DNA from: Shigella phage ESh32
Reading direction: 5' to 3' (one strand)
DNA length: 64,000 nt
Sequence record: ON528742
Position 1 is the stretch's first letter. Every line of letters starts with the position of its first letter. The position numbers and the translations under genes were made by a program. Positions 9,033 to 13,276 of the stretch are shown piece by piece. Below the pieces are notes generated by a model, which was not told where the DNA came from, searched no databases, and saw only the letters and a program-made list of their open reading frames with translations.

Positions 9033-9494
9033 ATGATTATTAATGAAAATTCTTGGCATTATAAATTATTCAAATTGTTTAACGATGAATGGCAACGACC
9101 TAAGACACTATGCGCATATTTTTGGTCTATTGCCATTCCTACATTTTTCGTTTCTATTTTTGGATGTACTATACTCGTAGGGCTAACAATTATTTGTGCA
9201 GAAAGCCTACAACGTTGGCTTATTTTCGGTAGTTTATGGACTCTTCTTCCATCGGCATTTATATTTGCGCTTTTGGCTGTTTTACTTATTATTGGTTCAT
9301 TTGTTATTCCTGTACATTTGCGTGAAAAATATAAAGATTATAAATGGAAAAAGGATTATGCTTTACACGTAGAAAACATTGATAGGAAAAATAAAGGTTT
9401 ACCTCCTATTCAACCCAAGAAATCGATTATCGTTGAATTTTTAAAAGCTCGTAAAGCTAAAGTATGTCCTGTTATTGAATATAAGGCTGAATGA
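9033..9494 (+). CDS. integral membrane protein
   Basis: 153 aa with at least three hydrophobic helices. Confidence 0.55.
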   Translation: MIINENSWHYKLFKLFNDEWQRPKTLCAYFWSIAIPTFFVSIFGCTILVGLTIICAESLQRWLIFGSLWTLLPSAFIFALLAVLLIIGSFVIPVHLREKYKDYKWKKDYALHVENIDRKNKGLPPIQPKKSIIVEFLKARKAKVCPVIEYKAE

Positions 9495-10504
9495 TGAAAA
9501 CAGTAATGAAAAGCTATTTTGGTAGTCATCTTTATGGAACTTCTACTCCAGAATCGGATGTAGATTTTAAAGAAATTTTTGTTCCTCCTGCTCGTGATAT
9601 TCTTATCGGAAACGTTAAAGATCATATGAGCAAAAACACTAACAACACATCATCTAAAAACACTAAAGATGATATTGACCATGAACTATACAGTCTTAAA
9701 TATTTCTTTAAATTAGCAGCAGATGGTGAAACCGTAGCATTAGATATGCTCCACACTCCACCTGAACTAGTAGTTAAATCTGATTTGCCTGATGTGTGGA
9801 AGTTTATTCAAGACAACCGTTCTCGTTTTTATACGACTAACATGAAATCATATTTAGGATATGTCCGCAAGCAAGCTTCTAAATACGGTGTCAAAGGTTC
9901 TCGTTTGGCTGCATTACGTGATGTATTGAAAGTAGTTAATCAAATCCCTGAGCAGTGGATTGATTACCAAGAAGATGGTTCTATTAAGCAGCGTCGCACT
10001 AAAGTTGAAGATATTAAGCATCGTCTTCCAGAAAACGAATTCTGTGAATGGGTGTTCCATAATCATGAGAAAACAGGCCCACAAACGTTCTACACTGTGT
10101 TGGGTCGTAAATATCAGACAACGCTTTCTCTTATTGAGCTTAAGCAGTCACTGAACAGATTAGATGCTGAATATGGTGAACGTGCTCGTAAGGCCGAAGC
10201 CAATGAAGGCATTGACTGGAAAGCTTTGAGTCATGCTTGTCGTGGTGGACTTCAATTATTGGAAATTTACAAAACTGGTGACTTAGTATATCCACTCCAA
10301 GATGCTCCCTTTATTCTCGACGTGAAGTTGGGTAAGCATCCATTTAAAACGGTTCAAGAGTTTTTGGAAGATGTGGTCGATCAAGTAGAAGCAGCATCTA
10401 CTGAAGCTTCTAAGAACGGTATGCAGCAAAAAGTAGACATGAGTTTTTGGGATGACTTCCTTGAGAAGGTCTATCTTGAAAACCACCGAAGTTATTATAA
10501 ATGA
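9491..10504 (+). CDS. Pol-beta-superfamily nucleotidyltransferase-like protein
   Basis: FGSHLYGTSTPESDVDF fits the GS-x9-13-DxD nucleotidyltransferase motif; 337 aa. Confidence 0.55.
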   Translation: MMKTVMKSYFGSHLYGTSTPESDVDFKEIFVPPARDILIGNVKDHMSKNTNNTSSKNTKDDIDHELYSLKYFFKLAADGETVALDMLHTPPELVVKSDLPDVWKFIQDNRSRFYTTNMKSYLGYVRKQASKYGVKGSRLAALRDVLKVVNQIPEQWIDYQEDGSIKQRRTKVEDIKHRLPENEFCEWVFHNHEKTGPQTFYTVLGRKYQTTLSLIELKQSLNRLDAEYGERARKAEANEGIDWKALSHACRGGLQLLEIYKTGDLVYPLQDAPFILDVKLGKHPFKTVQEFLEDVVDQVEAASTEASKNGMQQKVDMSFWDDFLEKVYLENHRSYYK

Positions 10505-10505
10505 T

Positions 10506-10531
10506 AGGGAGCCTTCGGGCTCCCTTTTTTA
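10506..10531 (+). terminator. intrinsic terminator
   Basis: agggagccttcgggctccct + tttttt. Confidence 0.8.
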
Positions 10532-10554
10532 TTTCAAAAATTTTTCACAAAGTT

Positions 10555-10584
10555 GTTTACAAGCATAAAGCTTTATGGTACTAT
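10555..10584 (+). promoter_or_regulatory. T4-type early promoter with A/T-rich upstream element (cassette copy A)
   Basis: aaaaatttttcacaaagttgtttacaag ... atggtactat. Confidence 0.6.
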
Positions 10585-10618
10585 ACAACTATCAACTGAT
10601 ACGGATTTGGAGAATAAA

Positions 10619-11587
10619 ATGAAAACTGTAACTATCAATAAGGGTATCTACTTCGGTAAAGAAATCTCTGGAACTTTTGAGCTCTTAGGCGAATGGTTCC
10701 CAGATAATGCTCCGGTAGATGCACAAGGAGATGGTAAAGTTTTTGTTGAAATTGACGGTAAACGTCGCGGTGTTTGGGTTTACAAATCAGACATTTCATA
10801 TGATGGTGTAAAAGTTGAAGAAGTTAAAGAATCATATGAAGATATGAAAACCCGCATTAATAAAAGATTTAATGTTATGGGAATGATGACGAATGGTATT
10901 ATTAACGGAAACATTCGTTCATTAATTATCTCTGGTGCGGCGGGTATTGGTAAAACGTATTCTTTAGATAAAGCTTTAAATAAAGCAAATGATATTGGAT
11001 ACATTGAATATAAAAGCATTAACGGTAAAATCTCCGGTATCGGTCTTTATGAGCAGCTTTGGAATAATCGTGAAGAGAATTCTGTCCTTTTGATTGATGA
11101 TGTGGATGTTTTCTCTGATATGGACATTCTTAATCTTCTGAAAGCTGCTCTGGACACCGGAGAGACCCGTAAAGTCTGCTGGAGCACCGCATCTTCTTAC
11201 TTAGAAGAAAAAGGCATTGAGCGTGAGTTTGAATTTAAAGGAACGATTGTTTTTATCACAAACGTTGACATTGACCGCGAATTAGACCGTGGTACTAAAC
11301 TTGCTCCACATTTACAAGCATTAGTGTCCCGCTCAGTTTATTTGGATTTGGGTGTTCACACTAATGAAGAAATTATGGTCAGGGTTGAAGATGTTATTCT
11401 TTCAACTGACATGATGCAAAAGCGCGGTCTTTCTGATGAAGAAACTTATAAAGCATTATCATGGATGAAAGTCAATGTTAATCGTTTACGCAATGTTTCA
11501 CTGCGTACTGCTCTTTATCTTGCTGACTTTATTATGACCGACAAAAACGGTTGGGAAGAAATTGCTGAAACGGTATTATTAAAATGA
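10619..11587 (+). CDS. AAA+/P-loop ATPase
   Basis: Walker A GAAGIGKTY, Walker B VLLIDDVD; ATG at 10619 after GGAG in the conserved leader. Confidence 0.65.
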   Translation: MKTVTINKGIYFGKEISGTFELLGEWFPDNAPVDAQGDGKVFVEIDGKRRGVWVYKSDISYDGVKVEEVKESYEDMKTRINKRFNVMGMMTNGIINGNIRSLIISGAAGIGKTYSLDKALNKANDIGYIEYKSINGKISGIGLYEQLWNNREENSVLLIDDVDVFSDMDILNLLKAALDTGETRKVCWSTASSYLEEKGIEREFEFKGTIVFITNVDIDRELDRGTKLAPHLQALVSRSVYLDLGVHTNEEIMVRVEDVILSTDMMQKRGLSDEETYKALSWMKVNVNRLRNVSLRTALYLADFIMTDKNGWEEIAETVLLK

Positions 11588-12303
11588 AAAAATATTTTAC
11601 TATCTATAAAACTGAAATATTAAATTTAAAGACAGGTATTAAGAAATACTATTATGGTCGACATATAACTAATAACATCAATGATTCGTATGTTGGTAGT
11701 GGAAATTATATAGAACGTGTAAAAGTGTCAAATGACCATATATTATCAAAAACGGTTTTAGAAGTTTTTGATAATTATGATAAAATGGTACAAGCCGAAA
11801 TATTATATATCATGGCAGGTAAATTGAAATATGGAAAAAACTGCGTTAACCTGTCATATGGGGGTGAAGGAGGAAAGGTTGCAGATGAAACTAGGATAAA
11901 ATGTAAAAAGCATTCTATAAATTTATGGAAAAATCCTAATCATATAGAGCATATGAAGAAAAAGATGAAAGAGGTCACATCCACGCCGGAAGCTAAATTA
12001 AACACTTCAATAAAAACTTCACAACGATATAAGGACCCAGCTTTTGTTAGAAAAGTTAGTAATATTATTAAAAAGACACTAAGCAATCCTACAGTAAAAG
12101 AAAAGCACATTAATGGAATTAAAGCTGCAAAGCGTTCTCATTTAACTATATGGCAGTATGAAGATGAATTATTCGAGCTTTGGAAAGAAACTAAATACGG
12201 ATGGAGAAAATTTACAAAGGAAGCTATAAAACACGGTTATCCAAATGAACCTTATCGTAGTATGGTATCAACTTTTCAGAAAAGACATTTAGAAGAATCG
12301 TAA
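11584..12303 (+). CDS. GIY-YIG family homing endonuclease-like protein (seg-like)
   Basis: N-terminal FTIYKTEILNLKTGIKKYYYGRH (GIY..YIG-like spacing, following Arg); basic C-terminal region. Confidence 0.6.
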   Translation: MKKYFTIYKTEILNLKTGIKKYYYGRHITNNINDSYVGSGNYIERVKVSNDHILSKTVLEVFDNYDKMVQAEILYIMAGKLKYGKNCVNLSYGGEGGKVADETRIKCKKHSINLWKNPNHIEHMKKKMKEVTSTPEAKLNTSIKTSQRYKDPAFVRKVSNIIKKTLSNPTVKEKHINGIKAAKRSHLTIWQYEDELFELWKETKYGWRKFTKEAIKHGYPNEPYRSMVSTFQKRHLEES

Positions 12304-12385
12304 GACAAAAAGGCAGTTCAGAAATAGATTATATGGACTGCCATCAAAAAGATGACTAGAATTAAACTGGTAAATGGAGGTAATG

Positions 12386-12688
12386 ATGTTATACTCAAAG
12401 GCTCGTGAAATTTACGAAACTAAAATTAAAGAAGCAGTATTTCAGTTCGCAACAACAATGCGATGGACCAATGATTGGGAATATTCAAAAAATCATAAGA
12501 AGCCCCTGGTGACAAGAAAGGCTCATATGTTAGTGTTAATAGACCGTGAGCAGATTAAAGCCCGAGAAGCTCTCCAGAATCATAAAAAGGCTGCCTTTGA
12601 ATGGTTTATGGATAACACTGCTCCTGAGACTAAGAAAGCAGTGAGCGCGTGGTTCAGTGGAAAAAATTGTGAAAGAAGTTTCTTTTAG
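12386..12688 (+). CDS. hypothetical protein
   Basis: ORF 12374..12688; start at 12386 preferred for spacing from GGAGG, 12374 possible. Confidence 0.45.
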   Translation: MLYSKAREIYETKIKEAVFQFATTMRWTNDWEYSKNHKKPLVTRKAHMLVLIDREQIKAREALQNHKKAAFEWFMDNTAPETKKAVSAWFSGKNCERSFF

Positions 12689-12690
12689 TT

Positions 12691-12720
12691 GTTTACAAGA
12701 CCGTTCCTCTGTGGTACTAT
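12691..12720 (+). promoter_or_regulatory. T4-type early promoter (cassette copy B)
   Basis: gtttacaagaccgttcctctgtggtactat. Confidence 0.6.
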
Positions 12721-12748
12721 ACAACTATCAACTACGGAGGAACAGAAA

Positions 12749-13276
12749 ATGAATGCTAAAGATATTTTCAACCTGGTAAATTACAACGATGGTAAATTTA
12801 AATCAGAAGCACAAAGCAAGTTCTTTAATGACATCTCAATCGGAGGTGAAATCACGGTTGACGGAGGACAAATTTACAAATCCCGTTGGAATTGGATCGT
12901 TATTATTGACGAGATCGGTATTGTAGAAATTTACAAAAATACGAATAAAAATCGTACATTACACTGGTCTCGTGATACTAACGAACAGTACAAAAAGGAT
13001 AAAGCATCTAAATTATCTCGTGTAACTCAAGAAGATATTGAGTTCATCAAGAAAGATATTTTGATGTATGATAACTTAATTGCTGAAGAGCAAGCTGTTA
13101 TTGATAAATTTGACGAGATTAAAGCTTCTCGTGAAATTCCTGATTTTATGAAAGAATCAGTAAATGAACGATACACTCTCATTTCAGAGCGTATTGAAAC
13201 TTACAAAAAGCAAAGAGCTGAACGCCAGAATACTCTTCGGAAGTTTGAAGAACGGTTAAAGACGGTACTCGCATAA
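12749..13276 (+). CDS. hypothetical protein with C-terminal coiled coil
   Basis: ORF 12689..13276; ATG at 12749 after GGAGG; C-terminal heptad-like helix. Confidence 0.55.
   Translation: MNAKDIFNLVNYNDGKFKSEAQSKFFNDISIGGEITVDGGQIYKSRWNWIVIIDEIGIVEIYKNTNKNRTLHWSRDTNEQYKKDKASKLSRVTQEDIEFIKKDILMYDNLIAEEQAVIDKFDEIKASREIPDFMKESVNERYTLISERIETYKKQRAERQNTLRKFEERLKTVLA

Follow-up and report, generated by a model that had tools for sequence, protein, structure and literature searches.

A Seg-like GIY-YIG homing endonuclease gene inserted at the 3' end of nrdC.10 in Shigella phage ESh32 and its putative target site

The free-standing homing endonucleases of phage T4 generally cleave DNA hundreds to thousands of base pairs (bp) away from their own genes (PMC2988022). 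The T4 gene segE is located between inh and uvsW, and mobD, coding for an enzyme with an HNH catalytic domain, between nrdC.11 and mobD.1 (PMC2988022, Table 1). Here we describe a Seg-like gene situated between nrdC.10 and nrdC.9 in a stretch of 64,000 nucleotides (nt) from Shigella phage ESh32 (sequence record ON528742), hereafter called the window. The gene is already known: it is annotated as a Seg-type endonuclease in many public records, and this annotation dates from 2006, when it appeared as RB32ORF093c in the RB32 record DQ904452, with the GenBank label 'putative site-specific intron-like DNA endonuclease, similar to seg'. Automated pipelines variously label it "hypothetical", "segE" or "HNH". 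It is missing from the lists in the reviews examined, and no paper characterising it was found. The only new elements presented here are the exact definition of the inserted cassette, the recoded tail of nrdC.10, the insertion at the same site in another genus and the target prediction that results from them. In our judgement the gene very probably encodes a free-standing enzyme of the Seg family that is co-transcribed with nrdC.10, cuts the empty allele of gene-less relatives and spreads by homing of its cassette, with the 3' end of nrdC.10 as the putative target.

The open reading frame (ORF) runs on the + strand from the ATG at 11584 to the TAA at 12303 and comprises 239 codons for a protein of 239 amino acid residues (aa). 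The start codon and the TGA of nrdC.10, the preceding gene, overlap as ATGA. The protein matches PHROG 314 'homing endonuclease' (E 4e-30), and the annotated genes of T6, RB32 and RB51 show 98% identity to the window gene. A chance reading frame can be dismissed because the gene is kept at 96-100% identity across 66 phage records, has an orthologue with the same N-terminus MKKY and shows a pooled ratio of nonsynonymous to synonymous diversity (pN/pS) of 0.16. The region 10553-13276 is matched in 684 phage records, the closest being the Shigella phage ESh34 (99.2%), followed by T6, AR1, RB32, RB14 and RB51 (about 98%); by sequence affiliation the window belongs to a T6/RB32-like Tequatrovirus. 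The flanking genes in the matching records are nrdC.11, nrdC.10, nrdC.9 and nrdC.8. The elements on which the following argument depends are these:

11584..12303, + strand: Seg-like free-standing homing endonuclease gene (= RB32ORF093c / T6 AXN58132; PHROG 314)
11584..11880, + strand: GIY-YIG catalytic domain (aa 1-99; Y8, Y23, G25, H27, E72, N89)
11884..12138, + strand: five tandem 17-residue helical repeats (aa 101-185), a degenerate NUMOD3-like DNA-binding linker
12139..12300, + strand: C-terminal three-helix module, helix-turn-helix (HTH)/homeodomain-like, also present at the C-terminus of MobD
11569..12300, no strand assigned: inserted cassette, 732 nt in carriers in place of 35 nt in gene-less phages
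11569..11587, + strand: recoded end of nrdC.10, carried by the cassette (E-T-V-L-L-K-stop; E-V-T-L-L-K-stop in empty-site phages)
10619..11587, + strand: nrdC.10, coding for an AAA/STAND-like ATPase of 322 aa (PHROG 1250, E 7e-166), upstream host gene and putative target
12374..12688, + strand: nrdC.9 (Pfam DUF7203, E 2.8e-15), downstream neighbour unaltered by the insertion

An alignment of the flanks against gene-less phages, as suggested in the first-pass annotation, located the insertion. Homology with 10 empty-site loci stops at 11566-11568 and restarts at 12301, which is the endonuclease gene's own stop codon. The cassette delimited in this way has a GC content of 29.7%, compared with 36-37% in its flanks. 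Its left 18 nt re-encode the last residues of NrdC.10, the tail being GAA ACG GTA TTA TTA AAA TGA in the window and GAG GTT ACT CTT CTG AAA TAA in empty-site phages. Both neighbours, nrdC.10 and nrdC.9, are intact, the spacer 12301-12373 is common to carriers and non-carriers, and T4, among others, has the empty site in contiguous form. The 720-nt gene was found as a single copy in 66 phage records (96.4-100% identity), with every inspected copy adjoining nrdC.10, whereas a 151-nt probe for the empty junction was contiguous in 435 records; hence, about 13% of the close relatives carry the gene. In IMG/VR, one of the 37 dereplicated Tevenvirinae loci with an nrdC.10 homologue carries it. The gene is free-standing and sporadic at a fixed site, two of the properties of T-even Seg endonuclease genes, and the earlier claim that it is not universal at this position holds.

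The diversity of the gene differs from that of its surroundings. Pooled pairwise synonymous diversity (pS) is 0.037, two to three times lower than in nrdC.10, nrdC.9 and nrdC.8 (0.08-0.12), which fits a younger common ancestor of the gene copies and indirectly favours a preferential inheritance of the gene in mixed infections. The pN/pS ratio, 0.04-0.07 in the same three neighbours, indicates a somewhat relaxed but real purifying selection on the endonuclease gene. Broken copies occur as well: those of AR1 and G157lw measure 719 nt due to a 1-nt deletion (the AR1 copy, locus L001 5032-5529, is annotated as a 165-aa 'segE'), and those of RB3 and RB10 measure 727 nt, with a 7-nt insertion that results in two ORFs of 159 and 96 aa. 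Low GC content, low diversity and broken copies are signs of a foreign, recently spread element, and broken copies are expected as the decay stage of the homing cycle. The same frameshifted or split copies, along with a pN/pS above that of the neighbours, could also be read as the traces of a decaying or inactive relic that has reached a late stage of the homing cycle, no longer cuts and persists by linkage. We consider this improbable, given that the window copy and seven of the eight other sampled copies are full length, that all invariant positions of the family are kept (Y8, G25, Y36, G38, G40, E72 and N89) and that even the elevated ratio still means purifying selection.

The affiliation with the GIY-YIG endonucleases had initially been proposed from the spacing of two N-terminal motifs (TIYK...YYGRH). 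The motif residues are present as T6-I7-Y8 and Y23-Y24-G25-R26-H27. A word-indexed homologue search returned two proteins only, neither with a Pfam annotation, and an exhaustive HMMER scan returned 1488 relatives at E<=1e-3, 81 of which (homologues at E <= about 2e-7) were used for the family alignment. Y8, G25, E72 and N89 are conserved in 100% and Y23 in 98% of the 81 sequences; with both Y8 and G25 invariant and Y23 nearly so, the motif is no chance resemblance. The window protein keeps every invariant or near-invariant position, i.e. Y8, Y23, G25, H27, T29, D34, Y36, G38, S39, G40, E72, N89, G93 and G94. Compared with I-TevI, the two motifs are set further apart; residues 13-14 and 18-19 are extra with respect to most of the family. 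PF19835 (SegE_GIY-YIG) is matched by 36 and PF01541 (GIY-YIG) by 27 of the 81 homologues, and these matches, along with those to NUMOD3 described below, bear out the Seg-like GIY-YIG assignment. The family profile also matches the catalytic domain of I-TevI (PDB: 1LN0, E 0.004) with the GIY and YIG motifs aligned, the invariant Glu falling on I-TevI E75 and the invariant Asn at, or at most one residue from, I-TevI N90.

The structural comparison concurs. An AlphaFold model computed with the family alignment reached a predicted local distance difference test score (pLDDT) of 95.4, against 41.5 for the single sequence, and contains the three-stranded antiparallel sheet with flanking helices of the GIY-YIG fold. 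A search of predicted viral structures retrieved the copies from T6, AR1 and RB3 and dozens of Seg-like proteins, among them T4 P04523, named DNA replication protein in the table of the search, which we take to be the product of the old gene 69, now SegF. In a tblastn search against phage genomes, a "GIY-YIG homing endonuclease" of an Aeromonas phage was matched (E 2e-12). On these grounds the protein belongs to the GIY-YIG superfamily, and nuclease activity is predicted from its sequence. The evidence for this membership is solely family-level and structural, as standard domain searches overlook the GIY-YIG domain in this subfamily.

The first-pass annotation described the C-terminus as basic. 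This holds for the C-terminal half, with 31 Lys and Arg versus 16 Asp and Glu and a pI of 9.9 for residues 101-239, and the character extends to the full protein (pI 9.7). Helices were predicted in the AlphaFold model at residues 101-116, 118-132, 135-150, 152-166 and 169-190, the last four of them beginning with Pro, and three helices are formed by the last 50 residues. NUMOD3 was matched by 27 of the 81 homologues at the place of the repeats of the window protein. The window protein itself did not match Pfam NUMOD3 at E<=1; it resembles NUMOD3 proteins and is not a member at the level of the model.

An insertion at the same point was found in the Klebsiella phage Wolf_ER13. Directly after its nrdC.10 (74% identical) follows a 46%-identical orthologue of the endonuclease gene with the N-terminus MKKY as in the window. 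In comparison with the empty-site relatives L015 and L026, homology is lost 16 nt ahead of the nrdC.10 stop and restarts at the stop of the endonuclease gene. The window and Wolf_ER13 share this insertion geometry, and in both the breaks lie within the conserved string GAAATTGCTGA(A/G)GT(T/A)AC. The corresponding NrdC.10 tail, W-x-E-I-A-E-V-T-(L/M/Q)-L-(K/R)-stop, is conserved in all 37 Tevenvirinae loci, likewise at the DNA level, and is the kind of constrained sequence targeted by homing endonucleases. The Wolf_ER13 cassette (L005 3477-3492) gives nrdC.10 a Q-L-R-G tail, while the empty-site relatives end in M-L-K. Since Q-L-R tails are native to another Tevenvirinae group (L034-L040), their occurrence in an M-L-K lineage suggests a cross-genus import of the cassette along with a piece of the donor nrdC.10.

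Carriers and non-carriers were compared in 19 genomes. All fixed differences between them lie inside the ends of the cassette, at 11569-11586 (12 differences) and 12284-12299. Within about 3 kb on either side no carrier-linked single-nucleotide polymorphism was found, and the allele-frequency difference never exceeded 0.62. As only the replaced junction sets the carriers apart, the conserved 3' end of nrdC.10 is the candidate target, and we infer a recognition or cleavage site around GAAATTGCTGA(A/G)GT(T/A)AC...CTGAAATAA, at the point of insertion or in its immediate vicinity.

Two accounts can be given of where the enzyme would cut. According to the first, the lineage is intron-endonuclease-like without an intron: unlike the characterised T4 Seg enzymes, it would recognise the conserved last codons of nrdC.10 and cut where it is itself inserted, the recoded tail would serve as an immunity and repair patch, and with this arrangement the same site would have been invaded in at least two Tevenvirinae genera. 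We put this forward tentatively, as a plausible proposal that may well need revision. According to the second, the enzyme follows the usual Seg geometry ('intronless homing') and cuts distally, hundreds to thousands of bp off in nrdC.10, nrdC.11, nrdC.8 or beyond, with the recoded nrdC.10 tail as a mere scar of the original illegitimate insertion rather than a target or immunity patch. The distances which the review of T4 mobile elements gives for free-standing endonucleases speak for such a distal cut (PMC2988022). Against it stand the lack of any carrier-linked polymorphism in the 3 kb surveyed on either side and the fact that two genera, with endonucleases of only 46% identity, agree in insertion point and replaced tail; such an agreement would follow from recognition of the site itself. 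Some Seg enzymes cut the DNA of carriers too, so an immunity polymorphism is not obligatory. Altogether, we regard the distal cut as unlikely, albeit a serious competitor. If the cut does lie at the junction, the gene would depart from the rule by which free-standing endonucleases of phages cleave at a distance from the genes encoding them. The precise cassette, the cross-genus insertion point and the recoded tail together provide a directly testable target prediction for the T6/RB32 endonuclease. Beyond this and a correct annotation, the locus carries little weight, being a routine and already annotated member of the Seg class.

Two expression signals were located upstream of nrdC.10:

10506-10525: terminator hairpin upstream of nrdC.10
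10556..10584, + strand: early-promoter-like site upstream of nrdC.10 (TTTACA-17-TACTAT with TG), likely source of the endonuclease transcript

A separate promoter of the endonuclease gene was not singled out in a sigma-70-like scan, in which weak matches (9 of 12) appeared at 11551-11579 and inside the ORF and which did not rise above its shuffled control. The T4 late-promoter motif TATAAATA was not found near the gene. RNA folding around the start codon gave no structure in which the ribosome-binding site would be concealed (z = +0.5). Judging from the sequence, the endonuclease is probably read from the nrdC.10 transcript, and the overlap of start and stop codon as ATGA suggests translation by coupling. 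Homing may then be pictured as follows. The early-type promoter that precedes nrdC.10 would drive a transcript comprising both genes, and in a mixed infection with a gene-less relative the enzyme would cut the empty allele. The cut allele would be repaired by recombination from the carrier genome, whereby the 732-nt cassette would be copied in. As the cassette supplies its own recoded nrdC.10 codons, the host gene would stay intact and the carrier would be left without the empty-site sequence; the recoded codons may in this way confer immunity.

The promoter-like site has a near-identical counterpart: two sites of the type TTTACA-17-TACTAT with TG precede nrdC.10 and nrdC.8, respectively (10553..10600 and 12689..12740). 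Due to these twin sites the ORF calls of both genes begin with an identical, spurious extension (MFT...GTIQLST), whereas nrdC.10 and nrdC.8 truly start at about 10619 and 12749.

Several observations weigh against our explanation. Direct searches with the window protein gave only noise in Pfam at E<=1 (including PF01541 and PF19835), zero matches in NCBIfam at E<=10, no relevant match with phmmer against PDB at E<=10 and no match with Foldseek against PDB. An obvious invariant Arg matching the R27 of I-TevI is missing; His27 is conserved instead (95%), position 26 is variable in the 81 sequences (K 35%, M 25%, R 9%), and the helix-1 region of I-TevI was left unaligned by the profile. Candidates for a functional counterpart of R27 are H27 and K/R44-45. 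The ATG is not preceded by an evident Shine-Dalgarno sequence. The carrier association is derived from a small sample, 9 carriers versus 10 non-carriers. Seg enzymes usually cut far away, which would make a cut at the junction atypical. Lastly, no biochemical or genetic data on the gene were found in the literature on nrdC.10, nrdC.9 and RB32ORF093c. The negative domain searches are also what one would expect if the protein were not a GIY-YIG protein at all and the motif a chance likeness in an AT-rich ORF. This notion is effectively refuted by the Pfam matches of the homologues and by the match of the family profile to I-TevI. The first-pass annotation had recommended a GIY-YIG search with hidden Markov models (HMM) and named the failure to detect the domain as grounds for rejection; the search was negative on the protein itself, and the recommendation taken literally would have wrongly rejected the finding.

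The surroundings of the gene vary in additional places. The first-pass annotation correctly placed an HNH-type mob gene in this neighbourhood of T4; the gene is mobD. In the window mobD is absent, and an ORF of 154 aa at 9033..9494 (+), upstream of nrdC.11, takes its place; it is 96% identical to RB32ORF096c, annotated as 'replaces mobD' in RB32 and T6. The mobD spot lies about 2 kb upstream of the endonuclease gene, and in RB5 the Seg-like gene occurs alongside mobD, which means two independent, separately assorting polymorphisms. The idea that the two genes are alternative occupants of one site was rejected for the same reason: the sites differ and RB5 has both. The Seg-like gene had been proposed as a possible cause of the differences from T4 in local gene content. 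This applies to the difference between nrdC.10 and nrdC.9 alone; that at mobD is separate.

A further variable spot is the spacer between nrdC.11 and nrdC.10 (10505..10618 in the window; in other Tequatroviruses L003 959-1978 and L004 1448-1770). ACG-C40 has a ModB-like ADP-ribosylase, a small ORF and a DUF4031 protein there, and ESh33 two small ORFs. The name nrdC.10 is given in the annotations of AR1, T6 and RB32; the AAA/STAND NTPase matches of its product are weak and sub-threshold. The nrdC.11 gene (9491..10504) matches the RlaP family of RNA-repair-type nucleotidyltransferases (PF10127, E 1.8e-11). The whole nrdC.x series is mislabelled 'thioredoxin' in many GenBank records.

The location of the gene within the hyper-variable nrdC-tk accessory region could point to a co-opted nuclease, whose breaks drive the segmental amplification or exchange of accessory or anti-defence genes or exclude the markers of competitors. 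A precedent exists in T6, where, according to a 2026 study, SegB causes anti-defence loci to be amplified both in cis and in trans (PMC13096335). However, the present gene is not mentioned in that study, its sequence holds no pointer to such a role, and 87% of the close relatives lack it. We thus judge co-option to be a rather remote prospect in comparison with a homing enzyme that targets the 3' end of nrdC.10.

Among the characterised endonucleases, SegH of RB3 and LZ2 (32% identity over aa 1-151, E 6e-7, tblastn) and SegB of T4 (27.5% identity over aa 21-186, E 5e-6, tblastn) are the relevant counterparts. Similar to the window gene, both are free-standing in T-even phages, lie between conserved genes and carry an N-terminal Seg-type GIY-YIG domain. 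In contrast, the window gene has another insertion site and another C-terminal DNA-binding module, and its activity and target are predicted ones. The 'segE' label in some records is a misnomer, since T4 segE is located elsewhere and the best T4 match is segB; orthology with T4 segE was rejected for this reason. By tblastn at E<=1, no other Seg paralogue was found within the window. Paralogues with 29% identity and the same full-length architecture occur downstream of uvsY in Dhakavirus IME281 (L006 2492-3181) and next to tk in VR5 and Roth78 (hits H62 and H64). Their presence at other sites in related genera implies that the subfamily has colonised several conserved genes.

I-TevI, the endonuclease of the T4 td intron (PDB: 1LN0 and 1MK0), is intron-encoded, unlike the window gene, whose product is without an evident zinc finger. 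In place of the I-TevI helix 1 with R27, the window family has a conserved H-x-T-x4-D-x-Y-x-G-S-G loop. MobD resides in the same neighbourhood as the Seg-like gene in T4 and RB5, at another insertion site, and differs in its catalytic domain, which is HNH in MobD and GIY-YIG in the window protein. Both share the C-terminal NUMOD3-like repeat and the three-helix module (BLASTP E 4e-6; aa 133-231, window 11980..12276), which argues for a shuffling of DNA-binding modules between GIY-YIG and HNH phage endonucleases. Closest of all are RB32ORF093c and its orthologues in T6, RB14, RB51, RB3/5/6/7/9/10, AR1 and ZN18, which represent the same gene: their nucleotide identity is 96-100%, and they too are flanked by nrdC.10 and nrdC.9. 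There is no substantive difference between them and the window gene, except that the copies of AR1, G157lw, RB3 and RB10 are frameshifted or split and that of the window is intact.

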